Part shown: piece after piece, positions 31,897-59,683 of the stretch | Position numbering within the stretch: position 1 is the first letter of the stretch | Layout: every line of letters begins with the position of its first letter | NCBI GenBank assembly: GCA_023898465.1 | Contig: CP060223.1 | Location: 128,001 to 192,000 of the forward strand | Direction of reading: 5' to 3' | Length of the DNA: 64,000 nt | DNA from: Candidatus Nomurabacteria bacterium | GTDB taxonomy: Bacteria > Patescibacteriota > Patescibacteriia > HK-STAS-PATE-3 | Position numbers and translations under genes: made by a program | Notes under the pieces: model-generated | The model's input: the letters and a program-made list of their open reading frames with translations, nothing else | Databases searched by the model: none | What the model was told of the DNA's origin: nothing

Positions 31897-31897
31897 T

Positions 31898-36469: not shown

Positions 36470-36476
36470 ATATATC

Positions 36477-41123: not shown

Positions 41124-41126
41124 CAC

Positions 41127-44100
41127 ATGAAATTCTTTTTGAGACTTACAGGTCGGATGCGAGAAAAAAGGGGACTAGGTCCGACTGTGCTTGTGAGTGT
41201 CTTTATTGTTGCCGCACTGGTACTTTTCTTTCCTGAGAGTCGCGCCTATGCCGCAAGCACGGGAGATAAGGTAGCACTCTTCTTTATTGAGAATTTCATG
41301 TACCCGGTGGTGCAGTTTTTGGCGAACGTATTGATTGTGGTAATAAATATCCTCGTCGCCGTTGCGCAGTACAATGGATTTATCAATGCTCCGGCAGTAG
41401 AAAAAGGTTGGGTGATTGTACGCGATCTCTCCAACATGTTTTTCATTGTCTTTTTGCTTATTATTGCGTTTGGTACCATATTTAAAATCGAAGCGTATCG
41501 TTACAATCGCATTCTTGGTAAGCTAGTTATTTTTGCTTTCTTGATTAACTTTTCAAAGTTTGTTGCTGGATTTTGGATAGACATCGGACAGGTGATCATG
41601 TTGACCTTTGTGAACGGGTTTAAGGACGCAGCAGCTGGTAATTTAGCCTCCGGTCTGGGATTAGACAAAACGCTAGAACTTTCAAACAGTCCACTTCAGA
41701 ACATTGACATCACGAGCAAAGCGCTTTATGGCGCTATTATTCTTGCCTTAATCCTCCTAGGGATTGCCGTTGTAGTGACGCTCATTATTACGGTGTTGTT
41801 GCTTTATCGTATTGTGATGTTATGGATATTGATTGTTTTTTCGCCTTTGGCTTTCCTTACCCGTATTTTTCCAAATACGACCAAATACTCTGATCAGTGG
41901 TGGGGTGAGTTTAATAAGAACATCATTGTTGGACCGGTGCTCGCCTTTTTTCTCTGGCTTTCATTAACTGTTATTGCAACAAGCAATGGAAATCTTGCCA
42001 CAGACTTTCAGTCAGTAAGTACGCAAGAGACTACCGGATTATTAGGCACGGCAAATGAGGCTGGTGAAGGCACTGGTCAGACGATTTCCGCCGCCATCAC
42101 TACGATAGGTGAGTCTGATCGTCTACTTTCCTACATGATTACCATTGGTCTCTTGTTAGGCTCTTTGCAAGCTGCACAACAACTCGGTGCTGCTGGGGGT
42201 CGCTGGGCCGGTTCAATGTCAGAGAAACTGAAGACCGGTGGTTTAAGTGCGGCCGGTGTTCTGAGCGGAGTAGCTGCGGCTCGACTTGCCTTACGAGGAG
42301 GAAAGGCTGGTGCAGAGCGTGTCGGGAGTACCGCATGGCGAACTGCGGTTACGAAATCAAAGGTAGGCAATCGACAGATACTGGCACCTTTAACCAGGAA
42401 ATACTGGGAAGGGTATGCACAGCGTGGGGCTGAGCAGCAGCAAGTCCTTGATCGTCGCATGATGGCCCGTGGGCGCACCATGGCTGATATTGTCCGTGAA
42501 ACCAAGCTCTATGGTGGTGGCGGTGACTTAGCCGTGGGCACCTACATTGAAGACACTGAACGCGCCTTGATTAACGAGGGCTATAATGAAAAACAAAAAA
42601 GTTTAGGAAAAAATCCTAGCTCGGAAAAGGTTGTTCAAGAAATGTGGAGCGCCAAAGCACAAAAAGGTGAACAAGGTATTACTTCAAAAAACAGTGGAGC
42701 GCTTCTGGGTGCTAGAAATGGAAATTGGGACGATCTTAACCAAATGATGTTTTTTAATAAGGAGCTTAAATCAAACATTGAAAAATACGGGCCTGACCCT
42801 GATCAAATCCCTGCAGACGTAAAAAGTAAGCTACTTGAAGAATGGGGCTTTAGTACTGATAGTGCCATTGATGAATGGGAAGATGTGGTGAATGAAAGTT
42901 CGAAACACATGCGTGTCATTATGATGAATTATCTAGGCCTGTCACGTAAGTATGATCCAGAATATCTAGCGGCTCAGGAAGCACAAAAGAGAGGGAAGAA
43001 CATCCATATCATGCGTCGTGAAGGCGAGGCTGGTGACGCAGGTGCTGCAAAAGAATATAAAGAAATTATGCAAAAATCCCAGCAACAAGCTATGAACGAA
43101 GCTAAAAACGCTGGAATTGATGATCGCAATCGACTCATAGCCTTACAGTGGGCCGGTGATGAAGCACTTAGTGTGGGTCAGCACGTTGAACAGCGACATG
43201 GACTCTTTAATGAAGAAGAGGGGTATAGCTATATTGGCACCCTAGAAAAAATGGCAGATGATTCTTACGGTCTGCTGAACAAAACAGAATCATCCAAAGT
43301 TATGGAGCGCATGTCGCCTCATGCCATTACTCCGCGCTATTTTGATACGGAAACAGGTGAGATAGACTATAATACTGACGCATCTGAATGGAGCGAGATT
43401 GGGAAACGGATGTTTAAATTCTTTGGTAAGTTTACCAACCGTGAAATTGGACGAATGTCGGGCCGTGTCGGTGAACAAATTATTGGACTTGATGGTGTTG
43501 TAGGAAAGAAAAATGTAATCTTTGATGCAAAAGGTCAATTTTACGAAGGCGAAGGAACAGATGAAGAAAAGAAAGCGCGTCGAGCTGAATCACAACGTCG
43601 GTGGGAGGCTATGTATAGTCAAGACTCACTTTCCGCGAAGAAATTATATATGAAGGTGTTTACCGGAAGTGCTGACGGATTTAAGGATTGGGATAAAGGT
43701 GGACAAACAATAAAAGGATGGACTCCTCCAGCACCGACAGAGGCGGAAAAAGCAGCTGTAAAAAAAGCTGAGGCTGAGGAAAATACAGAGACGGCTAATA
43801 AGGCAACAGGTGAAGAAAAAACATCTACGTCCGATACCGCGCAAAAAGATGAAACTAAATCGCCCGGAGGAGTGGTTTTGACTCCAGGTGCTCAGTTTAA
43901 GGCAGAACAAGAGGGGGAGGTAAAAACATCAGATAGAAGTAGTCAAACTCCTTCAGTAGAGCCTAGTGCTGATGAAAAAGCGCCTTATAATCGAGAACAT
44001 ATGCAAGCCTCTGATAGTTATGGCAGATTGGCGAATTCTTTGACCGCCTATCATGATGAATTGCCAAAATCGGCTGATGAGTTACGTACAACTATTAGCG

Positions 44101-44345
44101 AGCTTGGTCGTAACGTAACAGATGCGGTTGATCGTTTGAATAATATTCAGAGCAATGTAAAAGCTCCAGACTTAAAAAATGAAATAGGCGGTCTGGTAGA
44201 TAAATTGAAGACCCATCAGGAAAACGGAGAATCAATTCGCTTTAATCGAACCCCGGCTGATGAGCAGCGAGAATTCTTTAAGCGCAGTACAGAATTACTT
44301 GGTGAGGTGGGTAAGGTAATAAAAAAGTCAGTTAAAGAAAAGTAG
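41127..44345 (+). CDS. polytopic membrane protein, VirB6/TrbL-like (putative), with ~750 aa charged C-terminal extension
   Basis: 1072 aa. The N-terminal ~330 aa contain about 6 TM helices, a topology typical of VirB6/TrbL. The remainder is Lys/Glu-rich, coiled-coil-like and soluble. The family assignment rests on topology and context only. Confidence 0.6.
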   Translation: MKFFLRLTGRMREKRGLGPTVLVSVFIVAALVLFFPESRAYAASTGDKVALFFIENFMYPVVQFLANVLIVVINILVAVAQYNGFINAPAVEKGWVIVRDLSNMFFIVFLLIIAFGTIFKIEAYRYNRILGKLVIFAFLINFSKFVAGFWIDIGQVIMLTFVNGFKDAAAGNLASGLGLDKTLELSNSPLQNIDITSKALYGAIILALILLGIAVVVTLIITVLLLYRIVMLWILIVFSPLAFLTRIFPNTTKYSDQWWGEFNKNIIVGPVLAFFLWLSLTVIATSNGNLATDFQSVSTQETTGLLGTANEAGEGTGQTISAAITTIGESDRLLSYMITIGLLLGSLQAAQQLGAAGGRWAGSMSEKLKTGGLSAAGVLSGVAAARLALRGGKAGAERVGSTAWRTAVTKSKVGNRQILAPLTRKYWEGYAQRGAEQQQVLDRRMMARGRTMADIVRETKLYGGGGDLAVGTYIEDTERALINEGYNEKQKSLGKNPSSEKVVQEMWSAKAQKGEQGITSKNSGALLGARNGNWDDLNQMMFFNKELKSNIEKYGPDPDQIPADVKSKLLEEWGFSTDSAIDEWEDVVNESSKHMRVIMMNYLGLSRKYDPEYLAAQEAQKRGKNIHIMRREGEAGDAGAAKEYKEIMQKSQQQAMNEAKNAGIDDRNRLIALQWAGDEALSVGQHVEQRHGLFNEEEGYSYIGTLEKMADDSYGLLNKTESSKVMERMSPHAITPRYFDTETGEIDYNTDASEWSEIGKRMFKFFGKFTNREIGRMSGRVGEQIIGLDGVVGKKNVIFDAKGQFYEGEGTDEEKKARRAESQRRWEAMYSQDSLSAKKLYMKVFTGSADGFKDWDKGGQTIKGWTPPAPTEAEKAAVKKAEAEENTETANKATGEEKTSTSDTAQKDETKSPGGVVLTPGAQFKAEQEGEVKTSDRSSQTPSVEPSADEKAPYNREHMQASDSYGRLANSLTAYHDELPKSADELRTTISELGRNVTDAVDRLNNIQSNVKAPDLKNEIGGLVDKLKTHQENGESIRFNRTPADEQREFFKRSTELLGEVGKVIKKSVKEK

Positions 44346-45772: not shown

Positions 45773-46102
45773 ATGCGGTTGACTTTTGCATTTCCGAGAA
45801 ACATGAATACATGGAGCCTTATGCGGCGTTTAGGGTATAGTCCAGATCGCCGGACAGGCTTCCCAGCCCAGCGTTCCGCAGCTCAGGAATCTAGCTATCA
45901 ACGACGATTGGGTCGATTGGTATACCCCCGATTTCATGTGTACGTAAACCAGGACAGCTCCGATCTTCTTGTGCTCAATATTCACGTAGATATGAAGAAA
46001 ACAAGCTATGAGGGTAGTCACGCTCATTCAGGTGAGTATGATGGACCTTTATTAGAAGAGGAAGCAGCTCGAATTCAGCAATATATCAGCGCAAGCCGCT
46101 AG
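45773..46102 (+). CDS. hypothetical protein (109 aa)
   Basis: ATG ORF lying in the gap between the two operons. No recognisable motif. Its GC content is slightly higher than that of neighbouring genes. Confidence 0.3.
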   Translation: MRLTFAFPRNMNTWSLMRRLGYSPDRRTGFPAQRSAAQESSYQRRLGRLVYPRFHVYVNQDSSDLLVLNIHVDMKKTSYEGSHAHSGEYDGPLLEEEAARIQQYISASR

Positions 46103-46268: not shown

Positions 46269-47606
46269 ATGATAGATCTCGCAACGATTAATGCCAGTAC
46301 GATTGCTCAGCCGAAAACGCTGGAAGCAGTACGTGCAGAAGTCGATGATGTTGTCTCGCTAGGTGATGTATCGCGGGCAGGGGTTTTGTTATCGTATTTA
46401 CAGCGACAACTTCCCCAATCTCCAAATGATCCAATACGTAACAATTATCAAGAAATACTTCAATCGCTTGAACGGCTTGTTGGAGAGGCAAATCCCGCGG
46501 ATGATGCGCTCATTTCAGAAGAACGTACTCGTGTAGCAGTAAGAGATTCTTCGGGCAAGGTACAGCTCTTTAGTCATGGTCGCTTCCAGAGTCCAGAAGA
46601 GCAAAAACAGCAATTGCGCGAGCGTCCTTCCACTCCTCCGAGCTTCCGGAAGAGCATTGGAAATGTACAAAATAGTACTGAATCGCGAGCCGCGCAAAAG
46701 TCAGTCCCTGTTTCCTTTGATGTTCCGGAGGATGAAGAAGAGATTCGAGAGCATACCAATCGACTTTCCGGACTGCGTTTAAATGATCAGCATAATTATG
46801 AGGCAATGGTGGAGAGTATTATCTCCCATCATCATTTAGAGTTCCCAGATGAGCAGCTAGCGAAACGTTTCAGCACTATTGCAATCTCACGTTTGAAGGG
46901 TATTCGTGATGACAAAGAGGCAAAAGAAATCTTTACTCGTTCGCCAAAGGTCGGTGGCATGGGATTGGCGCCGGAATTAGCCGATGCGGTGCTGCAGTCT
47001 TTGGAGTCAGGCGCTGAAGTGCTTGATGAAAGCTTGCCTGAGGTGCATCCTCAACAGAAAGCGCACGTTCCGACGCCTACACCTCCAGCACCTTCGCGAG
47101 TGCTGCCACATCTAGCAAATCAGCCTACCAAGGTGATGGCGCATCAGGCTATCCCTACGCCGCCTCGTACGCAAACACCAGCAGCAACATCATCTGAGTC
47201 ACGCAAAGTACTTCCTAAGCGTCAAACAGTGCAGGCGAGCGGTCGTCCAACTTTAGACGATATTAAATCTCCTTCGCGTCGACTGGTTGGTCCGGTTGAG
47301 GAGTTGCAGCACCTAAGTCTAGAGGATTTTCGTAATTGGGGATCTACTCCAGCGGATAGTGTACGAAAAGTGTATGAGAAAATTGCCGTGCTTGGACAAG
47401 AATCATTTGGCAAACGCATTGAGGGTGTACAAGCCTGGCGTCAGAGTCCGGTGCATCAACTTTACTTATCCATTAGTCGTGAGAGTTTAGAAAAGGGGAC
47501 GGATGTGAGTAAAGTGATTAGTGAGCGGACGCAGCAAAATAAAGCCTCCTTGAGTGAGGCAGAGTTTCATGCGGTAGTTGATTTAAATACTAAGCTTCGT
47601 TTCTAA
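46269..47606 (+). CDS. hypothetical Pro-rich protein (445 aa), first gene of T4SS-like operon
   Basis: No TM segments. Central Pro/Thr-rich low-complexity region (PTPTPPAPSRVLP...PTPPRTQTPAATS). Its stop overlaps the next start (TAATG). Confidence 0.6.
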   Translation: MIDLATINASTIAQPKTLEAVRAEVDDVVSLGDVSRAGVLLSYLQRQLPQSPNDPIRNNYQEILQSLERLVGEANPADDALISEERTRVAVRDSSGKVQLFSHGRFQSPEEQKQQLRERPSTPPSFRKSIGNVQNSTESRAAQKSVPVSFDVPEDEEEIREHTNRLSGLRLNDQHNYEAMVESIISHHHLEFPDEQLAKRFSTIAISRLKGIRDDKEAKEIFTRSPKVGGMGLAPELADAVLQSLESGAEVLDESLPEVHPQQKAHVPTPTPPAPSRVLPHLANQPTKVMAHQAIPTPPRTQTPAATSSESRKVLPKRQTVQASGRPTLDDIKSPSRRLVGPVEELQHLSLEDFRNWGSTPADSVRKVYEKIAVLGQESFGKRIEGVQAWRQSPVHQLYLSISRESLEKGTDVSKVISERTQQNKASLSEAEFHAVVDLNTKLRF

Positions 47607-48118
47607 TGCAGTTTGTTGTACCTCAATTCATCGACGTAGAGGATAAAGTCATCGGGCCAATATCAGTGCGGCAGTTTATTCTGCTACTCGTTGGCGCTGG
47701 CATGATTTTCTTAGAGTACGAATTAATTTACCAGTTAAATAACAACATTTGGGTCTTTCTCTTTAGCGCAATTATTACTGGTTTGTTGGACATCGTTTTT
47801 GCCTTTGTGAAGGTGAACGGACGACCTTTTCATTTTTTTCTCCTCAACTTCTTAGTGACCATGCGTGATCCACGTTTACGTATCTGGAGTAAAGAAGTGA
47901 GCCTAAAGGATTTAAAGCGTGAACAGGCAAATGCAAATCCAGTTCAGACGGTAGTGGAGCCAACCAAAAAGTCGCTCACACCCTCAAAGTTGGCAATGCT
48001 TTCTTTGGTTGTTGATACTGGAGGAGCCTTTAAAGCTCCACAGAAGATTCGCGAGGGAAGTGTGAGCGTGAAGCGCGATGAGGCCCCCTCGTTAAGTGAT
48101 GATGAGTTTCGCAGTTAA
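47606..48118 (+). CDS. small membrane protein, VirB3/PrgI-like (putative)
   Basis: 170 aa. N-terminal TM hairpin (FILLLVGAGMIFLEY ... IWVFLFSAIITGLLDIVFAFV). It sits immediately upstream of the VirB4 ORFs, as VirB3-like proteins do in other T4SS operons. Confidence 0.5.
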   Translation: MQFVVPQFIDVEDKVIGPISVRQFILLLVGAGMIFLEYELIYQLNNNIWVFLFSAIITGLLDIVFAFVKVNGRPFHFFLLNFLVTMRDPRLRIWSKEVSLKDLKREQANANPVQTVVEPTKKSLTPSKLAMLSLVVDTGGAFKAPQKIREGSVSVKRDEAPSLSDDEFRS

Positions 48119-48127
48119 TATATTGTT

Positions 48128-48829
48128 ATGGCAGCAAAAAAAATTCAGGACAACAAAAAGAAGCGATCAGTAACGCCAACCCAGCGTTATATCGATATTC
48201 TTGAAGTGAAGGATGATATTGTCGTTCTAAAAGATGGCACGATTCGAGCTGTCCTTTTAGTATCCTCAATTAACTTTGCCCTGAAGTCAGAAGAAGAACA
48301 GAATGCGGTGATCGCCAGCTATACCCAGTTCTTAAACTCTTTAGACTTCTCTATTCAAATCGTTATCCAGTCTCGCCGTTTAAATATTGATGACTACCTC
48401 GAGCGATTAAAGCAGAGTGAGCGAGCGCAACGTAACGAGCTCCTCCGCATGCAGACAAGAGAGTATCGAGAGTATATTGCCGAGCTGATAGATATTGCCG
48501 ACTTAATGGCGAAGCGTTTCTACGTTGTTGTGCCATTTATGCCGCACTCTGATAAACCAAAACGTTTCTTCTCGCGCATACTTGAGGCAGTATCGCCATC
48601 GACAGTTATTCACCTTAAACAGCAGCAGTTTCTCACTTATCGCAGCGAACTTATGAAGCGGGTTGATTATGTTATTGATGGCTTGAGCGCAGCTGGCTTA
48701 AAGGCGGTTATGCTTGATACGCAGAGTTTAATTGAATTGTATTACAATACCTACAATCCAGAATCAGTTGGCCAGCAAAAGTTTGCTGATCTCTCAAAGG
48801 TAAATGTAGAAGGAGGCGGCAATGCCTGA
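48128..48829 (+). CDS. VirB4/TraC-like ATPase, N-terminal domain encoded as separate ORF
   Basis: 233 aa. The pattern IDILEVKDDIVVLKDGTIRAVLLVSSINFALKSEEEQNAVIASYTQFLNSLDFSIQIVIQS matches, by recollection, the conserved N-terminal region of Gram-positive-type VirB4 (TraE/PrgJ). It ends in ATGCCTGA, overlapping the downstream start by 8 nt. Confidence 0.65.
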   Translation: MAAKKIQDNKKKRSVTPTQRYIDILEVKDDIVVLKDGTIRAVLLVSSINFALKSEEEQNAVIASYTQFLNSLDFSIQIVIQSRRLNIDDYLERLKQSERAQRNELLRMQTREYREYIAELIDIADLMAKRFYVVVPFMPHSDKPKRFFSRILEAVSPSTVIHLKQQQFLTYRSELMKRVDYVIDGLSAAGLKAVMLDTQSLIELYYNTYNPESVGQQKFADLSKVNVEGGGNA

Positions 48830-50801
48830 TATTGATTTTTCCAAAGCAGCTGGCCAGACGCCTTCACCCTCGCCTTTACCAAAGTCAGAGCGGCAACGTC
48901 AGCAAGATGAGCGACTAGAGGCCGAGCAGGAGCGCGAACTACTTGAGGCTGAGCGGGTCTATCGAGCTGGAGTAGTTACTGTTCGCGATTTAATTGCTCC
49001 GGCGGCCATGAAAGTAGAGGCAGACTTCCTGCGATTGGGAAGTCAGTATGTCCGTACTCTCTTTGTTGTTTCATACCCGCGCTATATTACTGTTGGCTGG
49101 TTTGCGCCGATTATTAATTTCAATATCCCGCTAGATATCAGCATGTTCTTCTATCCGATTGAGTCAGCGGTTATTTTGAAGCAGTTGCGAAATAAGGTGG
49201 GTGTACTTGAAGCACAAATTATTTCCGATGCTGAGAAGGGCGCCCCGCGTGATCCAGTACGAGAGACAGCGCTTCGTGATATTGAAAAATTGCGAGATGA
49301 CTTAACGCAAGGTACAGAAAAGTTTTTTCAATTTGCGCTTTACGTAACCATTTACTCTTCGCGTAAAGACCACCTTGATTTACTGACAGAAAAGATCGAA
49401 TCAATTTTAGGAGGTCGATTAATTTACTCTAAGCGTGCCTTCTTCCAGGCTGAGCAAGGTTTCCACTCGACGCTTCCCCTAGGGAGTGATCAACTGCAGG
49501 TGACCTATAACATGAGTTCATCGCCGATTGCGTCGTCTTTCCCCTTCATTTCCTCTGATCTCACCTCAGATAATGGTATTCTCTACGGCATTAATCGCCA
49601 CAACAACAGCTTGATTCTCTTTGATCGTTTCAGCTTGCAGAACGCAAACTTTGTTGTCTTCGCCACGGCTGGAGCTGGTAAGAGCTACGCCATCAAGCTA
49701 GAGATTTTGCGTAGCTTAATGTTGGGCGCCGATGTCATCGTGGTAGATCCAGAAATGGAATATCGTCACTTATCTGATGCCGTTGGAGGGACCTACATTA
49801 ATATATCCCTGAATTCGGATTCAAAGATTAACCCCTTTGACCTACCGCGCCCGTCTCGCGAAGATGAAAAACCGGCTGATATTATTCGTTCCGCCGTTAT
49901 TACCTTAAAGTCTCTCATTCGTCTGATGTTGGGCGAGTTAAATCACGAAGAAGATTCTTTGATTGACCGGGCATTATTAGAGACGTACGCGAAGAAGGAT
50001 ATTACCCCAGATTCAGATTTGCAGAATATAGACCCGCCACTTATGAAGGATTTTGAAGAGGTCTTAGGCGATATGGTGGGAACAGAAGATCTCGTGCAGC
50101 GTTTGAAAAAATACACTGAAGGTACTTTTGCCGGCCTCTTTAACAGCGCTACAAATATTGAATTAAATAATCAGCTCGTAGTGTTCTCGGTACGTGATCT
50201 CGAGGATGAATTACGACCAATCGGAATTTCCACAATTGTCTCTTATATTTGGAATATTGTACGTTCTCAACTGAAGCGTCGCATCCTCGTGATTGATGAG
50301 GCGTGGTGGCTCATGCAACATGAGGACTCAGCTAAGTTTATTTATGCTTTAGTGAAGCGATGTCGTAAATATTATCTTGGAGTAACGACTATTACGCAGG
50401 ATGTGAATGACTTCTTGCGATCACCCTATGGCCAAGCGATTGTAAACAACTCCGCTTTACAGTTACTTATGAAGCAATCGCCAGCCGGTATTGATATCGT
50501 GCAGAAGACTTTCTTGCTCACTCAAGGTGAAAAGTATCTCTTACTTGAGTGTAATGTAGGTGAGGGTATTTTCTTCGCTGGAGCAAAACACGCGGCTATT
50601 AAAGTTGTAGCGAGTTATACCGAGGACCAAATTATTACCTCTGATCCACGCCAGCTCCTAGAGATCGAACAAGCTAAGGAAGAATTCGATGAAGCTTATG
50701 CGGCCGGTCAAACTGATTTGCCGCAAGATCAATTCGGCACAGCAAAAAATGAGCCACTCGAAGCAAAGCGTTCGCTAAGTGATACGGAGGGCTTAGGTTA
50801 G
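48822..50801 (+). CDS. VirB4/TrbE/CagE-like type IV secretion ATPase (C-terminal ATPase portion)
   Basis: 659 aa. Walker A FATAGAGKSY, Walker B ILVIDEAWWLM, and the conserved GVTTITQD motif. No TM segment, consistent with a VirB4 ATPase domain. Confidence 0.85.
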   Translation: MPDIDFSKAAGQTPSPSPLPKSERQRQQDERLEAEQERELLEAERVYRAGVVTVRDLIAPAAMKVEADFLRLGSQYVRTLFVVSYPRYITVGWFAPIINFNIPLDISMFFYPIESAVILKQLRNKVGVLEAQIISDAEKGAPRDPVRETALRDIEKLRDDLTQGTEKFFQFALYVTIYSSRKDHLDLLTEKIESILGGRLIYSKRAFFQAEQGFHSTLPLGSDQLQVTYNMSSSPIASSFPFISSDLTSDNGILYGINRHNNSLILFDRFSLQNANFVVFATAGAGKSYAIKLEILRSLMLGADVIVVDPEMEYRHLSDAVGGTYINISLNSDSKINPFDLPRPSREDEKPADIIRSAVITLKSLIRLMLGELNHEEDSLIDRALLETYAKKDITPDSDLQNIDPPLMKDFEEVLGDMVGTEDLVQRLKKYTEGTFAGLFNSATNIELNNQLVVFSVRDLEDELRPIGISTIVSYIWNIVRSQLKRRILVIDEAWWLMQHEDSAKFIYALVKRCRKYYLGVTTITQDVNDFLRSPYGQAIVNNSALQLLMKQSPAGIDIVQKTFLLTQGEKYLLLECNVGEGIFFAGAKHAAIKVVASYTEDQIITSDPRQLLEIEQAKEEFDEAYAAGQTDLPQDQFGTAKNEPLEAKRSLSDTEGLG

Positions 50802-51418: not shown

Positions 51419-52552
51419 ATGAGCTTTCGCTATAAAAAATTCGTTGTAGGAATGCTCACCGTTTTTCTCGGGTTTGGGGCGAGCTTTGTAGTCTCACCAG
51501 CTTCGGCACAGACAAGTTTACCCACCTGCTCATCAAGCGAGGTTTTAAATCAAATCGCTGATCACATGCAGCTCAATGTAGCGCTTCCAGGGATTACTAA
51601 CACAGTACAGTGCCTTTCGGAAACAGGTGACCAAGTAAAAACTATCCACGTTTTACAAGCAGAGTCAGGTCAGGAGCTTTCTACGTTTGTGAGAGGCTTC
51701 TATGTGTACTTTGTCTGGATTGTTGGTATTTTAGCAGTCGTGATGACTATGTACGCTGGCATTCAATGGTTAACTGCTGCTGGCAATACTTCACGGATTG
51801 AGAATGCTAAATCTACGATGAATGGTGCGCTTATCGGACTTGTATTGACGCTTACTTCATATGTTATTTTACAGGCAATTAATCCTGATTTAGTGACATT
51901 ACGAGTGCCTTTTGTTGAGCCGGTTGAAACAAGTGTTATTTCTGGGACATTTTGTCCACCAGCCCAGCAGACACAAGCTGAAAATTCAGGTCTGGTGTGC
52001 GGCGAACAACTCAAGTACTCGGATGCAAATGGTGCTGAGCACTTTTGTTTAAGTAGCGCCTGTCGAGCTGCTGATGGGGGAACTGATTGTCTGCCTTGCA
52101 CAGGGGACGGTGTTCCGTACGTGTTTTGTAAGGATCGTGGATACACCTGCGGTTACTACGACTCATTTATTTCAGTGGGGGCTACCATTACTAACTTAGT
52201 GCCAGATAAAGAACTAAAGTCGTTGAAGTTATATCGTACTAACCCAAATGCGCTTGAGGATGATAATGAATTACCATGGAAGCTTGTCAAAGAGTTTAAT
52301 GCAGATCAATTAACCGAAGGCGCGGTGCTGGAATTTACGAGCGATGATTCAGTCCCCCTTATCCAGTTTAAGTTTTCTGCGACATTCCGTGAAAGTTTTT
52401 GGAGTAATCGAGATTGTGACGCAGTAAATCCCGATGGATCAGTAAAACAACTATGGTTTGAATTACCCTATGCGCCTGGGTCAGTTGTTCACCAAGATTT
52501 TACTTTTGATATTCAAGGCATTTACAATAACAGCGAAGGCTGTATTGGTTAA
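51419..52552 (+). CDS. secreted protein with VirB2/TrbC-like pilin hairpin and Cys-rich C-terminal domain (putative T4SS pilin-like)
   Basis: Start moved to the ATG at 51419 (MSFRYKKFVVGMLTVFLGFGASFVVSPASA signal peptide). The conserved segment FYVYFVWIVGILAVVMTMYAGIQWLTAAGNTSRIENAKSTMNGALIGLVLTLTSYVILQAINP forms two TM helices with a loop, a VirB2-like topology. It is about 90% identical to the corresponding segment of 54446..55636. Confidence 0.6.
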   Translation: MSFRYKKFVVGMLTVFLGFGASFVVSPASAQTSLPTCSSSEVLNQIADHMQLNVALPGITNTVQCLSETGDQVKTIHVLQAESGQELSTFVRGFYVYFVWIVGILAVVMTMYAGIQWLTAAGNTSRIENAKSTMNGALIGLVLTLTSYVILQAINPDLVTLRVPFVEPVETSVISGTFCPPAQQTQAENSGLVCGEQLKYSDANGAEHFCLSSACRAADGGTDCLPCTGDGVPYVFCKDRGYTCGYYDSFISVGATITNLVPDKELKSLKLYRTNPNALEDDNELPWKLVKEFNADQLTEGAVLEFTSDDSVPLIQFKFSATFRESFWSNRDCDAVNPDGSVKQLWFELPYAPGSVVHQDFTFDIQGIYNNSEGCIG

Positions 52553-52563
52553 TCACTATTCAT

Positions 52564-53814
52564 ATGGAATTACCCTCACTTTCACGAAATCGAGTACTAG
52601 CTATTTTTGGCTTCTTGGTCGTACTCTTCATTCTTGGCTTCTTGCTTTTCTGGGCTTTTTTCCGCACCGATACCGCCGTAAATGGTAATACCAACACTAC
52701 CTCAAATGGTCGTTTACCAAACACCAATGATGGAGTGAATCGATCAACTACAAATACAAATAGCGTGAGTGTTTTACCGATCACTAATACACAGATAGAG
52801 GTGCCAAGCGCCACTGCCGATGGCGGGAAAACCATTGCGCAATCTTTAGTTGACACCCCTTCGGCAAATATTGCCTTAGCCGGAAATGGTGTTGATCTGA
52901 TTTATTACGAGGAGCTGAGTGGGAAATTCTATCAGCTTGATAGAAATGGCGTGGAGCGAAAAGTATTGAACGACACTACTTTTAAAGGAGTCTCGGATGT
53001 AGCCTGGTCACCAAACCGACAACGTGCCGTGCTTACTTTCAAAGACGGTGCAAATATTGTGTATGATTTTTCCAAGCAGCAGCAGATATCACTACCAACC
53101 GAGCTGCAAGAATTTTCCTTTTCACCTGATTCCGCGCAAATTGCCGCAAAGTTTATTGGTCCGACAAAGGATGATAATTGGCTGGCCGTCGTAGATGTAA
53201 ATGGGGGAAACGTGCAGGTTGTTGAGCCTTTGCGGGATAAGGAAAATCAAGTGCAGGTAAACTGGTCTCCAAACTCGCAAATTGTCGCCACCTATCAGCA
53301 GTCAATTGATAGTGAACGTCAAGAAATTGTTCCTCTAGGTATCCAAGGCGAGAATTTTAAATCCTTCGAAGTTGAGGGGAGGGGTTTTGAAGGAAAGTGG
53401 GACCAAAGTGGAAATAGGCTTCTTTATAGCGTTTACAGTTCATCATCCTCAATGAATCCAGAGTTGTATATTGTGCAGGCGAGGGGCGATGCAATTGGTG
53501 AAAGTAATACACGACTAAATCTGCAAACCTGGCCAGATAAGTGTGCCTTTACCTCGAGTGCTACTAAGGTATATTGTGCGGTTCCGCAGGGTCTAGAAAG
53601 TGGTAGTGGTCTCTATCCAGAGCTAGCAAATAGCGTGCCATATCAATTTTATGAGATTAATCTCAGCACGGGTGTACAGCAGCTGATCGCGACGCCTACT
53701 AATACAACAGGTGAAACAAGGTACTCGGTGGGTAATGTATATTTGTCAGGCGCTGAGGATCAAATCTATTTCACTGATCAGGATGGTAAGATTCGTACAA
53801 TTAAGTTGCGATGA
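52564..53814 (+). CDS. membrane-anchored beta-propeller (TolB/PD40-like) protein
   Basis: TM anchor, then an Asn/Thr-rich linker, then repeated WSPN motifs (VAWSPNRQRAVLTF; VNWSPNSQIVATY) typical of PD40/TolB-like beta-propeller blades. Confidence 0.6.
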   Translation: MELPSLSRNRVLAIFGFLVVLFILGFLLFWAFFRTDTAVNGNTNTTSNGRLPNTNDGVNRSTTNTNSVSVLPITNTQIEVPSATADGGKTIAQSLVDTPSANIALAGNGVDLIYYEELSGKFYQLDRNGVERKVLNDTTFKGVSDVAWSPNRQRAVLTFKDGANIVYDFSKQQQISLPTELQEFSFSPDSAQIAAKFIGPTKDDNWLAVVDVNGGNVQVVEPLRDKENQVQVNWSPNSQIVATYQQSIDSERQEIVPLGIQGENFKSFEVEGRGFEGKWDQSGNRLLYSVYSSSSSMNPELYIVQARGDAIGESNTRLNLQTWPDKCAFTSSATKVYCAVPQGLESGSGLYPELANSVPYQFYEINLSTGVQQLIATPTNTTGETRYSVGNVYLSGAEDQIYFTDQDGKIRTIKLR

Positions 53815-54449
53815 TGGAGAATAAGAAGCATAATTGGCTCTTACCTTTATTAGTAGCGCTTGCTGCCATAGTCCTGATTGGGTTTACCTGGTGGACTATT
53901 AGCATCCCAACTACGCCGAATCTTTCCACGCGTTTCCCAACTGTACATTTAACTGATCCGGTTCGCGGCGGACAAGATGCGCAGGTGACTATTGTTGAGT
54001 ATAGCGACTTCCAATGTGAATTTTGTCAGACTTGGCATACGGTTGCTCAGCAGATACTAGATAAATATGGCGACAAGGTAAGATTGGTATGGAAAGACTT
54101 TCCCTTAACCGATCTACACCCAGAGGCAAAAGCAGCCGCAGAAGCAGCGCGTTGTGCTCAGCAGCAATTTGCTTTTTGGGAATACCACGATCAACTTTTT
54201 GCACGTCAGAGCGAGTTAGGCACAGCGCTTTATACTGATATTGCCCAAGACCTTGGCCTAGATGCACAAGCCTTTACTCGTTGCCGAGGTTCAGGTGATG
54301 CAGACACTTTCATTACGCAGAGTCAGCAGGAAGGCGTGACCCTTGGGGTAAGTGGCACGCCAACCATCTACGTTGGTCAATACATTTTCAAAGAAGCGCC
54401 AAGTTTTTCTACGGTTGATTCACTTGTTTCTTCATTACTGTCTGAATGA
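53811..54449 (+). CDS. DsbA-family thiol:disulfide oxidoreductase
   Basis: TM anchor and a CxxC active site (FQCEFCQTWH) in a thioredoxin fold. Overlaps the upstream gene by 4 nt. Confidence 0.8.
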   Translation: MMENKKHNWLLPLLVALAAIVLIGFTWWTISIPTTPNLSTRFPTVHLTDPVRGGQDAQVTIVEYSDFQCEFCQTWHTVAQQILDKYGDKVRLVWKDFPLTDLHPEAKAAAEAARCAQQQFAFWEYHDQLFARQSELGTALYTDIAQDLGLDAQAFTRCRGSGDADTFITQSQQEGVTLGVSGTPTIYVGQYIFKEAPSFSTVDSLVSSLLSE

Positions 54450-55636
54450 AGCGAAGGGATCTTTTCTTTATCTTACTCGTGGGAATTGTTGGGGGAGCTT
54501 TTTTCTCTTTGCAGACGCCGACAGCCCAGGCTTCAGAATGTTGTTGTGTAGAAATTGAAGTAGTGGGAGGAGCACCGATACAGGACTGTAAGGTGTTGGA
54601 TGAATGTGCCTTACCTTATTTACCAACAGATCTTGACCCACTCCAATGTGCAGGTGTAAACACAGATATTGAGTCAAGCACTACAAGTGATCCGATTTAT
54701 TTTACGCCTAACGCACCTATCCCAGGAGTTTTTGAAGGACCACAAGAAGTAGACGGCACACTACTGAGTCGCTACATTCGCTCTTTCTATATTTATTTTG
54801 TTTGGATTGTTGGTATCTTAGCAGTAGTGATGACAATGTACGCTGGCATCCAATGGTTAACCGCGGCCGGTAATACTTCGCAAATAGAGAATGCTAAATC
54901 CACCATGAACGGAGCCCTGGTTGGTTTAGTGTTAACGCTGACCTCGTATATTATTTTACAGGCGATTAATCCAGCACTTGTGACGCTTCAAGACCTCTCT
55001 ATCTTTTCAGTTCCAAGTCAGTTGATAGGAGAAAAAGGAGAATCAAGTGCGCGGGGTGATACCGCCGCAGGTTTACCAGAATCAATACAGGATTTAAGTG
55101 GAGTGAGTAATGTCACCAAGTGGGACGACCTGATTCGAACGATAAGTAATGAGAATAACGTCAATCCATATTATGTGAAAGCAATCATGATGATTGAGTC
55201 GCGCGGAAATGCAAACGCGATTTCACCCGTTGGCGCATGCGGATTGATGCAGGTAATGCCGGCAAATGCGAATGGCGTATGCCTGGTCGGTGAAGCACGA
55301 GCAGAGGAGAATATTCGAGCTGGTGTAAATCTCATTGCTCGACTCATTCGAAATACCTGTCCGAGCTCAGCTAGTCTAAAAAGTGGTAAAACTGTGGAGT
55401 GTAATCCACAACAGACAAATTGCTATAACGGCAGCTGGCATTATGTGATTGCGGCATATAATGGAGGAGTGGGGGCTAATTGCTCCTCACAGACTTGTGC
55501 GCCGGCTGGACCAGGCTTAAAAGGTCAGACGTGGTGGGAATGCACAGATAATGGTGGCTTTGCGGAAACTAGAAATTATGTAAAATCGGTAGAAAAGATG
55601 TATACTATTGTGCAAGGTTGGGGGGGTCTGAACTAA
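54446..55636 (+). CDS. fusion protein: VirB2-like pilin hairpin + lytic transglycosylase (SLT/VirB1-like) domain
   Basis: Signal peptide. The conserved hairpin FYIYFVWIVGILAVVMTMYAGIQWLTAAGNTSQIENAKSTMNGALVGLVLTLTSYIILQAINP is shared with the paralog at 51419..52552. The C-terminal SLT motif is VKAIMMIESRGNANAISPVGACGLMQVMP. Confidence 0.8.
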   Translation: MKRRDLFFILLVGIVGGAFFSLQTPTAQASECCCVEIEVVGGAPIQDCKVLDECALPYLPTDLDPLQCAGVNTDIESSTTSDPIYFTPNAPIPGVFEGPQEVDGTLLSRYIRSFYIYFVWIVGILAVVMTMYAGIQWLTAAGNTSQIENAKSTMNGALVGLVLTLTSYIILQAINPALVTLQDLSIFSVPSQLIGEKGESSARGDTAAGLPESIQDLSGVSNVTKWDDLIRTISNENNVNPYYVKAIMMIESRGNANAISPVGACGLMQVMPANANGVCLVGEARAEENIRAGVNLIARLIRNTCPSSASLKSGKTVECNPQQTNCYNGSWHYVIAAYNGGVGANCSSQTCAPAGPGLKGQTWWECTDNGGFAETRNYVKSVEKMYTIVQGWGGLN

Positions 55637-55646
55637 GAATTTTTGC

Positions 55647-56990
55647 ATGCGTAACAGCACCCTATTTGTTTGCTCAAAATGTGATGCGCAGTATAGTAGC
55701 TGGCAGGGCCGATGTGCCGAGTGTCAGGCTTGGGGTACTCTAGAGCCAGCCAATGCCAGCGCTAGCGATCAAATGGTTAGCGCAACAAAGCCGGCTGCAG
55801 CTACACCCTTGCATGAATTACGCGGCTCAAATGTTGAGCGATTTAGTACGGGCATAGCAGAATGTGATCGCGTATTAGGTGGCGGGATAGTTCCCGGAGC
55901 AATGTTATTACTGGCTGGCGCGCCGGGTATTGGAAAATCAACTTTAGTGTTGCAACTTGCTTCCCATATTGCGAAGGGCGGCAAAGTGCTCTATGTCTCG
56001 GGTGAGGAATCCGGGGAGCAAGTAAAATTACGTCTTGATCGGCTTGGTTTATCAGCGGAAAATATTGACTTCATCAGTAGCACCGTAATTGAGCCATGCT
56101 TGGCAGCAGCTGATAAACTGAAGCCTCGCCTCATTATTTTTGATTCAGTGCAGACACTCGCTTCGTCCAGTATTCCCTCCGAGGCTGGCACTGTTGGACA
56201 AGTGCGCACGGTTACGAACCTGGCGATGCACTATGCAAAAAATCATACCGTGGCCACTTTACTCATTGGTCACGTGACAAAAGAGGGGGTAACCGCTGGT
56301 CCAAAAACACTGGAGCACTTAGTAGATACTGTACTTTCCTTAGAAGGCGATAATAAGCATCAGTTTCGCTTATTGCGTAGCAGTAAAAATCGCTTTGGCA
56401 CAACCAATGAAGTTGGAGTATTCACGCTCGAGGAAAAAGGATTACGCGAAGTTGCTAATCCATCCGAGCGCTTCTTAGAAGAACGACAGCAGGGTAGTGG
56501 ATCAGTTGTCACAGCAACGATGGAGGGCACTCGAGCTTGGTTAGCAGAGATTCAGGCTCTAGTAAATCCCTCTGTCTTTGGCATGCCGCGACGCTCAGCA
56601 ACTGGAGTTGATGGACAACGTTTGCAGCTTATTCTAGCAGTTTTAACGAGACGAGCAGGTCTGCAATTGGGGACTCAAGATGTATTTGTGAATGTGGTTG
56701 GAGGTATTAGCGTGCGTGAGCCAGCCGCCGATCTCGCTATCGCACTCGCAGTAGCTTCTGCTTTTCGAAATGTTTCGTTTGATTCACACACGGCCATGCT
56801 GGGAGAGATAGGCTTAGGCGGTGAGGTGCGAAGTGTGGGACAAATCGAGCAGCGTGTAAGAGAGCTTGAGCGTATGGATTTTAAGAGAGTGCTGGTGAGT
56901 GCAAAGACCAAGATGAAAAAAAGTGGGATTGAAATTATCCCGGTTGCCACAGTAAAGGACGCCATTACTGCTCTTTTACCAAAAGCTTAG
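55647..56990 (+). CDS. radA: DNA repair protein RadA/Sms
   Basis: N-terminal C4 zinc finger (CSKCDAQYSSWQGRCAEC). RecA-like Walker A GAPGIGKSTL. KNRFG motif. C-terminal Lon-like domain. Confidence 0.9.
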   Translation: MRNSTLFVCSKCDAQYSSWQGRCAECQAWGTLEPANASASDQMVSATKPAAATPLHELRGSNVERFSTGIAECDRVLGGGIVPGAMLLLAGAPGIGKSTLVLQLASHIAKGGKVLYVSGEESGEQVKLRLDRLGLSAENIDFISSTVIEPCLAAADKLKPRLIIFDSVQTLASSSIPSEAGTVGQVRTVTNLAMHYAKNHTVATLLIGHVTKEGVTAGPKTLEHLVDTVLSLEGDNKHQFRLLRSSKNRFGTTNEVGVFTLEEKGLREVANPSERFLEERQQGSGSVVTATMEGTRAWLAEIQALVNPSVFGMPRRSATGVDGQRLQLILAVLTRRAGLQLGTQDVFVNVVGGISVREPAADLAIALAVASAFRNVSFDSHTAMLGEIGLGGEVRSVGQIEQRVRELERMDFKRVLVSAKTKMKKSGIEIIPVATVKDAITALLPKA

Positions 56991-57586
56991 GCTTCTTTTT
57001 TCCAGTCGCCCTCACTGAAACGATTCACGCCCTTATCATGCCAGTCATGTGGGTTCGCTTTTTGGATTGCGTCCCAGATTTTCTTAGCTGATGCAGTGGA
57101 GAGCTTTTCGCGCAACATCGATTGGCGTTTTGGTCCAAAAGTTTCGTTTATCTTATTACCCTTGCTTGATTGTTCGCTTATTTCAAATTCTTGGTCAAGG
57201 ATATCAGCATCCTTCACAATCTTTGCTTCGATAGATTCCTTTGCCTGATACTCACGAAATAGCTCTACATATTCACTTCCTAGCGAAGTGTCATGGAAAA
57301 TGTCCTGGGCTGCTTTTTCTTCATTTCGGCTAGTATAGAGGCGTGATACATAGTGCACATCACCCGTTCGAGTTTCCGGTAAATCATGCACGAGGGCCAT
57401 TTTAGCAATCTTGCCCGCATCGCCCTGGTTTTCGTGTCTGGCAAGAGTAAGGGCAATCCAGATAACCCGGATAGTATGTTCGCTGTCATTGGCAAAATCA
57501 GCGTTCAGAAACTGTCGCCAAGTACGTGGAATAAAGCGAAAAGTGCCTACTTCATACAGGAATTGAATATCGCGCTCGAGGCTCAT
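56987..57586 (-). CDS. HD-domain phosphohydrolase (YfbR-like 5'-deoxynucleotidase family)
   Basis: H...HDLPETRTGD metal-binding motifs. Length 199 aa. Convergent with radA, overlapping it by 4 nt. Confidence 0.65.
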   Translation of the reverse strand: MSLERDIQFLYEVGTFRFIPRTWRQFLNADFANDSEHTIRVIWIALTLARHENQGDAGKIAKMALVHDLPETRTGDVHYVSRLYTSRNEEKAAQDIFHDTSLGSEYVELFREYQAKESIEAKIVKDADILDQEFEISEQSSKGNKINETFGPKRQSMLREKLSTASAKKIWDAIQKANPHDWHDKGVNRFSEGDWKKEA

Positions 57587-57625
57587 AGGGGTAGTGTAAT
57601 AAGGGAAGGGGAAAAAGTAAATGCG

Positions 57626-59683
57626 TTACTCCCAGTGCACTGCATCATGCCGAATTGTTTCAAGTAACCCTGGCCACTTCTCCAGGTTGACGTCTTGTTG
57701 CAATAGCTCTTTCGCAATATCGCGAGTATGAGCAATAAGCTCAATATCTTGGAGTGACGCCATGCGAAAATCAGGTAAACCGGATTGTCGGCCTCCGCGT
57801 AATTCACCGGGCCCGCGGCGCTTCAGGTCTTCTTCAGCTACGGCAAAACCGCTCCTGGTTGCCGCGAATTTTTTCAGACGACCACTTGTTTCTGATTGAC
57901 TTAAGAGGAAGCAATACGATTGGGCGTCACCTCGGCCGACTCGTCCACGAAATTGATGCAGTTGCGCTAGACCAAAACGTTCAGCATTTTCAATCACCAT
58001 CACGCTTGCATTTGGCACATCTATGCCTACCTCGATGACTGCAGTTGCTACTAGGATGTCATAGTGATGATCAGCAAAGTCACGCATAATCTTTTCTTTT
58101 TCCTTGCTCCCAAGTTTGCCGTGCAGGAGTGCTACACGGAGTTTAGGGAAGACATGCTTTTGTAATTCTTCCGCCATATGCGTGGCAGCTTTGACGCCCA
58201 GCAAGTCGGATTCATCTATGAGCGCGGTAATGACAAAAGCTTGTCGACCTTGCGCAATTTGTTGTGCAATAAAGCCGTACATTTCCTTTCGCTTTGCCTC
58301 GGGAATGAGATGCGTTCTTATAGGCTTACGATTTTTTGGCATTTCGGTGATCGTGCTGATATCCAAATCGCTATAGAGAGTAAGCGCTAGGGTGCGGGGG
58401 ATCGGCGTTGCGGTCATGGAGAGAAAGTGTGGCTCTGTACTTAATGCTGTGCCAGTTTTTTCTTTAAGGAGTTTACGCTGAGCCACCCCGAAGCGATGCT
58501 GCTCGTCAATGATGATAAGTCCGAGACTTTGGAATTGAACATCTTCAACTAACAGGGCGTGAGTGCCAATCACCAACTGGATGCTTCCCTGGCCAATTTC
58601 TTTTTTGAGCTGCGATTTTTTAATAGCATCATTTCTATTTGCCTTTGCTTGGGATCCAGTTAAAAGAGCGATAGTTATTGACGTGTCCTGCAGGGTTTTT
58701 TGTATACTTTGGAAATGCTGCTCAGCCAGTACTTCAGTTGGTGCCATGATGGCAACTTGATGTTTGCTCCACATAGTGTTAAGAGCAGCCAAGATGGCTA
58801 CTAGGGTTTTTCCTGATCCGACATCACCCTGCAGTAAGCGATTCATTGGGTGGGCCTCGTTCATGCTCTGAATAATTTCCCAGGCTGCATTACGCTGTCC
58901 ATTGGTTAAGGTGAAGGGGAGCGTCGCTACAAAGTCTTTTGTTGCTTTTTCATGAAACTCAATCTTGGGTGCTGCAGCATGATGCAGTTGTGCGCGGTGC
59001 ATTTGATTATGTAACTGGAAACGCAGCAACTCATCAAAGGCAAGTCGAGCTCGCGCGGCCCTTAGTGCAGCATAGGTTTTTGGGAAGTGAATATCCCGTA
59101 CGGCAGTCTCGAGCTTTGGTAGCTTTTCGCTTTGACGGATTTTTGTTGGTAGAGGATCTTTAATCTCTTCCACGCAGGGTAGTGCCTGTTGCACCAAGTA
59201 GCGGAGGTACTTTGGCGTCAAACCATCAGTAACTGGATAGATAGGCACAATGCGTCCGGTATGCGTTTGTTCATCCTTCACTGGCTCGAAACTTGGATTG
59301 GTCATTTGCAGGCTGCCATCCTTTGCCAGGCTTGGTGTGCCGCTGACAATTATTTCCTCGTTATTCTCTAAACTCTTGGCGATATAGGCTTGATTAAACC
59401 AGACAAGCTTCAGATAACCACTCTCATCTTTCACAGCCGCTTCAGTAATACTCATCCGGCGACGGAAGCTACGACGGGCTCCAAGCAGCTCAACATGCAC
59501 ACGCACACTCGCTGCTATCCCAGCCTGCAAGCGAGAAATAGGGATGACTTGCGAAAAATCCTCATAGCGAAAAGGGTAATGCTGCAGCAGTTGGCGTACG
59601 TTTTGGATACCGAGACGTTGAAGCGCTTGAGCGATTTTTGGTCCTACTCCACGCAGTTGGGTAAGCGGTGTTTTGAGGTCCAT
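57626..59683 (-). CDS. recG: ATP-dependent DNA helicase RecG
   Basis: 685 aa. N-terminal wedge/OB region. Helicase motif I GDVGSGKT, motif II IIDEQHRFG, and QxxGRxGR motif (HQFRGRVGRG). Confidence 0.9.
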   Translation of the reverse strand: MDLKTPLTQLRGVGPKIAQALQRLGIQNVRQLLQHYPFRYEDFSQVIPISRLQAGIAASVRVHVELLGARRSFRRRMSITEAAVKDESGYLKLVWFNQAYIAKSLENNEEIIVSGTPSLAKDGSLQMTNPSFEPVKDEQTHTGRIVPIYPVTDGLTPKYLRYLVQQALPCVEEIKDPLPTKIRQSEKLPKLETAVRDIHFPKTYAALRAARARLAFDELLRFQLHNQMHRAQLHHAAAPKIEFHEKATKDFVATLPFTLTNGQRNAAWEIIQSMNEAHPMNRLLQGDVGSGKTLVAILAALNTMWSKHQVAIMAPTEVLAEQHFQSIQKTLQDTSITIALLTGSQAKANRNDAIKKSQLKKEIGQGSIQLVIGTHALLVEDVQFQSLGLIIIDEQHRFGVAQRKLLKEKTGTALSTEPHFLSMTATPIPRTLALTLYSDLDISTITEMPKNRKPIRTHLIPEAKRKEMYGFIAQQIAQGRQAFVITALIDESDLLGVKAATHMAEELQKHVFPKLRVALLHGKLGSKEKEKIMRDFADHHYDILVATAVIEVGIDVPNASVMVIENAERFGLAQLHQFRGRVGRGDAQSYCFLLSQSETSGRLKKFAATRSGFAVAEEDLKRRGPGELRGGRQSGLPDFRMASLQDIELIAHTRDIAKELLQQDVNLEKWPGLLETIRHDAVHWE

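Follow-up and report, generated by a model that had tools for sequence, protein, structure and literature searches.

The subject of this analysis is a pair of genes, here called A and B, in a 64,000-nucleotide (nt) window of a Candidatus Nomurabacteria metagenome-assembled genome (MAG) from an ultrasmall bacterium of the Patescibacteria, or candidate phyla radiation (CPR) (GCA_023898465.1, contig CP060223.1, positions 128,001-192,000). Positions 51419-55636 of this window hold four genes of the same orientation, adjoining or overlapping one another, which encode A, a beta-propeller protein, a DsbA-like protein and B (Table 1). The DsbA-like gene overlaps both of its neighbours, the propeller gene and gene B, by 4 nt, and the overlapping start and stop codons within the block suggest co-translation. 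A and B each carry a near-identical hairpin of two hydrophobic helices, and the block lies directly downstream of type IV secretion system (T4SS) genes. In B the hairpin is joined to a predicted lytic transglycosylase.

Identical A and B proteins were recovered from the NCBI MAG and from an independent Logan assembly, so the pair is not an assembly artefact. The A product is identical to NCBI protein H6760_00730, and the B product is 100% identical to an NCBI entry from Candidatus Nomurabacteria named 'transglycosylase SLT domain-containing protein'. An upstream start for gene A at 51356 was rejected, since orthologues and the NCBI annotation begin at the signal peptide and the extension would overlap the preceding gene.

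BLASTP comparison of A with B returned one significant segment (A residues 80-162, B residues 100-182; 68/83 identical, 82%; E 3e-42), and nothing outside this hairpin segment aligned. Counted without gaps from FY(V/I)YF, 63 of 68 core amino acids (aa) are identical (93%), in a hairpin of 68-70 aa. The original prediction, made from the DNA letters, had described a near-identical core of about 75 aa with roughly 85% nucleotide identity; the core stands at this slightly shorter length, whereas the nucleotide figure falls to 79% over 210 nt (51698-51907 versus 54785-54994). Identity reaches 89% over the first 75 nt and about 72% beyond, with 29-36% immediately outside the core. The paired hairpin is real. 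Thirty synonymous and seven non-synonymous codon differences separate the two cores, and 30 of the 63 codons for identical residues differ, which shows the segment to be under strong purifying selection and no fresh copy. A six-frame phmmer search found no third hairpin copy in the window.

The two proteins also agree in overall plan. Both begin with a signal peptide, read by eye, that has a K/R-rich start, a hydrophobic core (in A a 19-mer at residues 8-26, Kyte-Doolittle value 2.11) and a readable A-x-A site, with cleavage at the slash in ASA/Q after A30 and in AQA/S after B29. The prediction that the core follows a signal peptide in each protein is thus borne out. Hydropathy peaks lie at residues 8-26, 93-111 and 136-154 in A and at 6-24, 113-131 and 156-174 in B, corresponding to the signal peptide and two transmembrane (TM) helices. 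AlphaFold2 models place two long helices around a four-residue turn (A 86-119/124-154, B 106-139/144-174), with an overall predicted local distance difference test score (pLDDT) of 74 for A and 80 for B, and 85-91 in the hairpin helices of B. The domains that follow the hairpin are different, as had been proposed: A holds 12 cysteines, 10 of them after the hairpin, in a Cys-rich C-terminal domain, and B holds 14, six before the hairpin and eight within an SLT domain whose motifs are intact.

To place the pair in its evolutionary context, we compared the window's locus (W) with nine other Patescibacteria contigs (L001-L006 and L008-L010, shortened to L1-L10). Each of these nine loci contained two hairpin genes, and exactly two, in a span of about 10 kb. 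A neighbour-joining tree of 18 cores of 68 aa from nine genomes (W, L1-L5 and L8-L10) revealed that A and B cores group by genome and not by gene type. Bootstrap values for the within-genome pair were 0.98 in W, 0.85 in L1, 1.0 in L4, 0.88 in L8, 0.83 in L9, 1.0 in L10 and 0.35 in L2, that is, 0.83-1.0 in six of seven independent lineages. Only the close relatives L3 and L5 resolve as A-A and B-B pairs, inside a single clade.

This grouping is concentrated in the centre of the hairpin. Within-locus identity of the A and B hairpins is 72-93%, and core residues 9-48, spanning most of the first TM helix (TM1), the loop and the start of the second (TM2), are 92% identical within genomes (minimum 82%), the figure for same-type orthologues being 54-56%. 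Type-specific residues persist at the outer end of TM2, where within-genome identity is only 66%. In W, gene B ends TM2 with the A-type 'SY..LQAINP', the usual B-type being 'SF..LR(T/L)INP', which suggests a longer A-to-B conversion in the W lineage.

The codons carry the same signal. At identical residues the same codon is used in a fraction of 0.47-0.67 in W, L1, L3, L4, L5 and L10, versus a between-genome background of 0.36 +/- 0.08, and runs of identical nucleotides extend to 52 in L1, 49 in L3 and 26 in L4. In L1 and L4 the codon excess is significantly confined to the first 45 codons as compared with the last 23 (Fisher p 3e-5 in L1, 4e-4 in L4). The signal in W itself is modest, with 28 of 58 identical codons versus 20 expected (P ~0.02-0.03). 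The identical-codon tracts in L1, L3 and L4 are gene-conversion tracts, and since such tracts occur in several genomes, the hairpins evolve in concert.

Domain analysis of B identified an SLT domain (Pfam PF01464; 56.1 bits, E 3.4e-15, residues 229-345) well above the gathering threshold of 21.3. The motifs IES (E251-S252), GLMQ and AAYNGG are present, and 25 homologues show no variation at E251, S252, G266, Q269, Y338, N339 or G340. The stretch IESRG...GACGLMQVMP aligns with QESRF...GAQGLMQVMP of Neisseria LtgA, the region of the catalytic Glu; the SLT motifs and the catalytic Glu named in the original prediction are present. The SLT domain is modelled with pLDDT 90-98, and Foldseek matched it with probability 1.00 to LtgA, Slt70, MltF, MltC and MltE (E down to 3e-5). 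Its eight cysteines lie in a segment conserved across B homologues. Taken by motif and modelled fold, the C-terminal domain of B is a predicted family-1 lytic transglycosylase with intact catalytic motifs. Its NCBIfam matches were to general lytic transglycosylase models only (flagellar, Slt, MltC, EmtA and MltF), all far below their cut-offs.

The union of hairpin and wall-degrading domain recurs beyond this window. The pilin-SLT architecture occurs in about 30 protein clusters, from Patescibacteria wherever a source is named, with A-type proteins alongside. Among 94 close single-hairpin relatives, about nine carry a wall-degrading domain (SLT, M15, M15_4, Amidase_2, C39_2 or 3D), marking a recurrent though minority theme on the hairpin. 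In the related loci the B slot retains the Cys-rich N-terminal domain and the hairpin while the catalytic domain changes: it is mostly SLT, with VanY/M15 in L004 and NlpC/P60 in L010. One B-type protein of 651 aa (P0007; L002, 10001-11956) continues beyond its SLT domain for about 250 further aa, and this C-terminal addition is rich in D-x-D/Cys repeats that give way to a beta-rich region.

Gene order is maintained across these loci. The full order PrgI, TraC-like protein, VirB4, a TM protein of about 190-240 aa, A, propeller, B and radA was found in L001-L004, L008 and L009, one of them a Kerfeldbacteria genome, sometimes with one extra gene between the TM protein and A. The shorter loci L005 and L010 show as much of this order as they cover, and L006 was checked for the two hairpin genes only. 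A propeller gene lies between A and B in L001-L005 and L008-L010; L001-L005 and L010 also have the DsbA gene, which L008 and L009 lack. A scan of GTDB genomes with the core gave two loci, one a duplicate of L002. The public record of the L002/L007 contig (CAZWTD010000015.1) bears the title 'uncultured Gammaproteobacteria bacterium', although the contig has a full T4SS block of Patescibacteria type; a binning or labelling error is the probable cause.

We then considered the family to which the hairpin belongs. Both proteins match Pfam PF18895 (T4SS_pilin), A with 40.6 bits and B with 35.2 bits against a gathering threshold of 26.6, so the core matches a pilin family above threshold in both proteins and not a non-pilin one; the same match was obtained for every one of the 18 core fragments and 94 close relatives. 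A and B show the plan of this family, namely a signal peptide, two hydrophobic helices and a short polar loop, in the gene setting expected of it, a T4SS cluster with VirB4, PrgI/VirB3 and VirB6 that is kept in the related loci. Neither protein matched TrbC (PF04956) at E <= 0.1. Weak Pfam TrbC matches were found for 4 of 18 cores (best E 0.0046) and 3 of 94 relatives (best E 2e-4), and two Saccharibacteria pilins with dual PF18895 and PF04956 matches are listed in Table S2 of PMC10633639. Taken together, the weak matches and the published dual matches hint at homology between PF18895 and TrbC/VirB2. Both hairpins also weakly match NCBIfam NF045849, a pilin-like family of Mollicutes integrative and conjugative elements (ICEs), with scores of 20.9 bits (E 2e-4) and 22.5 bits (E 7e-5) against a cut-off of 40, a further hint in that direction.

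In a library of 1.84 billion proteins, the hairpin profile matched 65,594 representative clusters (E <= 1e-3). Many of the top matches hold 2-11 hairpin copies in one polypeptide (P0068-P0092, P0111 and P0112), for example 11 stretches in P0089 (1147 aa) and 8 in P0078 (820 aa). Such multi-hairpin proteins may represent tandem 'polypilins', or else gene calls that were merged.

Upstream of A and on the same strand, the window encodes three giant proteins (25756-41123), a VirB6-like protein, two proteins without assignment, PrgI, a split VirB4 and a 192-aa TM protein; downstream of B lies radA on the plus strand, followed by an HD hydrolase gene and recG in the opposite orientation. The VirB4 assignment draws on NCBIfam VirB4 and TrsD matches that all fall under curated cut-offs, a Pfam P-loop_TraG match (2.6e-30) and a TraC-like match in orthologues. 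The cluster is a chromosomal T4SS of the monoderm (MPF_FATA-like) type, as described for Patescibacteria by Quinonero-Coronel et al. 2025 (PMC12102498). A scan of 44-58 kb for promoters and terminators gave counts not above those of shuffled controls.

Table 1. Positions of the hairpin genes, their parts and the associated T4SS genes in the 64,000-nt window.
Feature	Position	Strand	Description
Gene A	51419-52552	+	377 aa; signal peptide, small N-domain, PF18895 hairpin, disulfide-rich beta-sandwich C-domain
Gene A signal peptide, predicted Sec	51419-51508	+	aa 1-30, ...SPASA/QT; read by eye
Gene A hairpin core	51698-51901	+	aa 94-161: TM1, AAGN-x-I-x-NAK loop, TM2, INP
Gene A C-terminal ectodomain	51938-52549	+	aa 174-377; 10 Cys, beta-rich, orphan fold
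Protein with N-terminal TM helix and beta-propeller	52564-53814	+	416 aa; weak beta-propeller Pfam matches
DsbA-like thioredoxin-fold oxidoreductase	53811-54449	+	212 aa; Pfam Thioredoxin_4 2e-29, DSBA 2e-17
Gene B	54446-55636	+	396 aa; signal peptide, Cys-rich N-domain, PF18895 hairpin, ~45-aa linker, SLT
Gene B signal peptide, predicted	54446-54532	+	aa 1-29, ...TAQA/SECCC; read by eye
Gene B hairpin core	54785-54988	+	aa 114-181
Gene B SLT domain	55121-55633	+	aa 226-396; catalytic E251 at 55196-55198
TrbL/VirB6-like protein, extended	41127-44345	+	1072 aa; Pfam TrbL E 4.2e-5, just under gathering score
PrgI (VirB3-like)	47606-48118	+	Pfam PrgI 35.5 bits, threshold 27
Split VirB4	48128-50801	+	TraC-like/TrsD N-domain 48128-48829 and P-loop ATPase 48822-50801
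Protein with one N-terminal TM helix	50818-51396	+	192 aa; between VirB4 and A; position conserved in related loci

Several features of the neighbourhood were recorded alongside. The split of VirB4 into a 233-aa TraC-like/TrsD protein and a 659-aa P-loop ATPase, with stop and start overlapping, recurs in the related loci that span this part of the cluster (L001-L004, L008 and L009). The 192-aa protein, which had no Pfam or PDB sequence match, has a soluble domain of about 120 aa, and its size and position would suggest a VirB8-like component; this family was rarely detected in the phylum by the 2025 survey (PMC12102498). The beta-propeller protein had no informative PDB sequence match. The giant open reading frames (ORFs) upstream of the VirB6-like gene (25756-44345 region; 2046, 1523 and 1563 aa) match CBM_4_9, Big_7, FN3-like and purple-acid-phosphatase-N domains and may have a T4SS-linked role at the surface or as adhesins.

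Further along, radA follows the T4SS block on the plus strand in every locus that reaches that far, and recG follows on the minus strand in L001, L002, L004, L008 and L009, including the Kerfeldbacteria genome; in W this stretch spans 55647-59683. The linkage to recombination genes may be functional or may simply reflect ancestral gene order. Elsewhere in the window, a 1194-aa leucyl-tRNA synthetase (18614-22198, plus strand) contains an apparent alpha/beta-hydrolase domain at residues ~250-450 (Abhydrolase_1/6, Ser_hydrolase), located after the first segment of the catalytic core and ahead of the editing domain.

With moderate confidence, we read the hairpin as a shared docking or assembly module of this T4SS, with B as a tethered, VirB1-like cutter, A as an adhesin-like or structural protein, DsbA as the folding catalyst of their ectodomains, and the match between the hairpins kept by a shared partner. 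Under this scheme A and B would be exported by Sec, and the hairpin would insert into the membrane with its AAGN...NAK loop in the cytoplasm. Such a loop position would leave both flanking domains of each protein outside the cell, where the product of the neighbouring DsbA gene could oxidise their many cysteines; the arrangement fits the Cys content (12 in A and 14 in B) and the location of the DsbA gene between the two.

The hairpin would be recognised by the VirB4/VirB3/VirB6 machinery and docked or assembled into it, as VirB2 pilins are elsewhere. On its flexible linker of about 45 residues, the transglycosylase of B could open peptidoglycan at the site of apparatus assembly in the manner of VirB1, a role by local lysis that gene context supports and that in sister lineages would pass to the M15/VanY or NlpC/P60 peptidase in the same slot. 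Fusion to the hairpin would in this way localise wall cutting to the conduit, as the original prediction held. The disulfide-rich beta-sandwich of A would serve as an adhesin or structural head. Both hairpins would have to fit one partner or lattice, and episodes of gene conversion, with strong purifying selection after them, would keep them matched. As far as sequence analysis reaches, the earlier interpretation is supported.

A number of results weigh against this reading or against parts of it. The proposed VirB2/TrbC topology holds as to the two-helix hairpin, the PF18895 membership and the VirB neighbours, while direct VirB2/TrbC homology could not be shown by profile comparison: hhalign aligned the core profile in register with seven plasmid-derived annotated VirB2/TrbC proteins at a probability of 1.7%. 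A PDB sequence search with the same profile returned no VirB2 or TraA, its sole match being an irrelevant chain at E 0.6. By PF18895 profile and fold the hairpins appear pilin-like. The 64-kb window and the related loci contain no short stand-alone pilin, and a candidate ORF of 109 aa at 45773-46102 was rejected because it is not hydrophobic.

The remaining adverse points concern the enzyme, the topology and the conversion model. No VirB1-specific model in NCBIfam matched B. The hairpin loop carries K and E in B and R, K and E in A, giving little net positive charge, so that the positive-inside rule lends the topology weak support. L2, L8 and L9 show no synonymous excess though their proteins match, which indicates either older conversion followed by purifying selection or co-adaptation alone in these lineages.

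A first alternative, the main rival though one we regard as unlikely, turns the hydrolase towards a host: the hairpin would be a true polymerising pilin or an export handle, and VirB4 would extract A and B into a T4SS filament or tip, where the head of A binds a host bacterium and B cuts the host wall for a conduit or for nutrient release. Patescibacteria studied so far are obligate epibionts, and the role of their essential T4SS has been described as completely unknown (PMC11665869). The exchange of SLT, M15 and NlpC/P60 domains in the B slot is how adaptation to host wall chemistries would be expected to look, but such swapping could equally follow the chemistry of the organism's own wall. 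The major and minor subunits of type IV pili co-polymerise through a common N-terminal helix beneath variable heads, and the matched hairpins resemble this device, by analogy only, as family and machine are unrelated.

Other points speak against the host-aimed alternative. Conjugative pili of the F and T types have a small axial rise per subunit, and A and B carry ectodomains of about 60-200 residues at both termini; together these argue that A and B do not form every subunit and would be at most minor or tip subunits. The window and the related loci offer no candidate major pilin nearby, a lack with which a minor-subunit or tip role is still compatible, and there is no evidence for any PF18895 protein leaving the membrane.

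An extended form of this idea, which we consider doubtful, treats the PF18895 hairpin as a portable handle for T4SS extraction and assembly. Different fused cargoes would be displayed on one filament or tip as an enzyme-armed drill through the host wall, and conversion would keep the co-assembling hairpins matched. If this were so, the cargoes would include lytic transglycosylase, M15, NlpC/P60 and amidase domains as well as adhesin-like heads.

It is improbable, in our assessment, that the hairpin is a generic membrane anchor and that A and B are housekeeping envelope proteins, for wall remodelling and as a surface protein, with no link to secretion. Gene order in small Patescibacteria genomes can persist for historical reasons, and the unrelated radA and recG are adjacent too; the lack of a VirB1-specific match for B is also in keeping with a general wall enzyme. 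Yet the PF18895 family is defined by its association with T4SS, shows a weak likeness to the Mollicutes ICE pilin-like protein, and in S. epibionticum lies inside an essential T4SS cluster. The block of A, propeller, DsbA (where present) and B stays with VirB4 across very divergent lineages, with overlapping codons. Nor would a mere anchor need a 92% match between paralogues in the hairpin centres while orthologues drift to about 55%. That the similarity of A and B reflects a recent duplication or an assembly chimera, as the sharply bounded block of identity amid unrelated flanks might suggest, is exceedingly improbable and was rejected, since the synonymous divergence of 30 of 63 codons shows the copy not to be recent, two independent assemblies hold identical proteins, and in nine other contigs the two genes are arranged alike, their flanking domains orthologous and the gene order conserved.

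The preferred reading, a shared docking module with a tethered cutter, was further compared with known systems. T4SS clusters of Patescibacteria are already known to encode VirB2-like pilins of the PF18895 family (PMC10633639, PMC12102498 and PMC12857230), and in Southlakia epibionticum such pilins and separately encoded peptidoglycan hydrolases are reported to be essential in the T4SS cluster (Wang et al. 2023, PMC10633639; PMC12102498). The S. epibionticum genes SEML1_0014-0019 resemble A and B in their PF18895 match, in combining a signal peptide with a hairpin, and in belonging to a monoderm T4SS with PrgI, VirB4 and VirB6. According to the 2025 survey, published Patescibacteria pilins are encoded by genes of 381-435 nt (~127-145 aa) in arrays of 2-11, with a mean identity of 25% and a maximum of 54% (PMC12102498). 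Here, by contrast, each locus has exactly two hairpin genes whose products are 340-500 aa long with large ectodomains, and whereas the S. epibionticum hydrolases SEML1_0006 and SEML1_0007 are separate genes (PMC10633639), the hydrolase is fused to the hairpin.

Muralytic domains of lytic transglycosylase type encoded in T4SS clusters are familiar from VirB1 (Agrobacterium) and, in Gram-positive bacteria, from PrgK (pCF10), TraG (pIP501) and TcpG (pCW3). These proteins are soluble or held by a single N-terminal TM anchor, whereas B carries a pilin-family hairpin. In classical MPF_T plasmids virB1 stands immediately upstream of virB2 and virB3, so the fusion in B joins functions that are neighbours elsewhere. 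Gram-positive T4SS hydrolases are membrane-tethered and often have several catalytic domains (PMC12102498). According to the 2025 survey, most genomes with VirB2-like pilins lack VirB1, the Paceibacteria being an exception for VirB1-VirB4 linkage (PMC12102498).

Two further systems invite comparison. Mbov_0395 and MMCAP2_0565 of Mollicutes ICEs (the NF045849 family) are, like A and B, two-helix proteins encoded beside VirB4 in a monoderm conjugation system, but they are small (about 80 aa) and have no ectodomains. The Trw system of Bartonella is said, in work attributed to Nystedt and colleagues in 2008 and cited in PMC12102498, to have amplified its trwL (VirB2) paralogues, which evolve in concert. 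As with A and B, paralogous T4SS pilin genes of one cluster are homogenised within the genome. There, however, the tandem amplification takes in small pilin genes in their entirety, and their surface-exposed parts diversify, whereas here the central hairpin alone is homogenised, between genes whose ectodomains are unrelated to each other and orthologously conserved.

The pilin family, the enzyme family and the type of secretion cluster are thus known. A description of the hydrolase-hairpin fusion, of its interchangeable catalytic domain or of concerted evolution of the hairpins was not found in the literature searched, which included the available portions of the 2025 survey (PMC12102498). It has been asked whether T4SSs of the monoderm type are capable of building a pilus (PMC12857230). 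With VirB1 lacking in most genomes that have VirB2-like pilins, this locus may fill a gap: in at least one widespread lineage, a wall-cutting domain is physically fused to a pilin module. Two properties make the system experimentally tractable. The catalytic domain is interchangeable while its scaffold is retained, and the central 40 residues of both hairpins are actively kept alike, marking a probable surface of interaction with the machine or with each other, and the match between them suggests that both hairpins fit the same machine.

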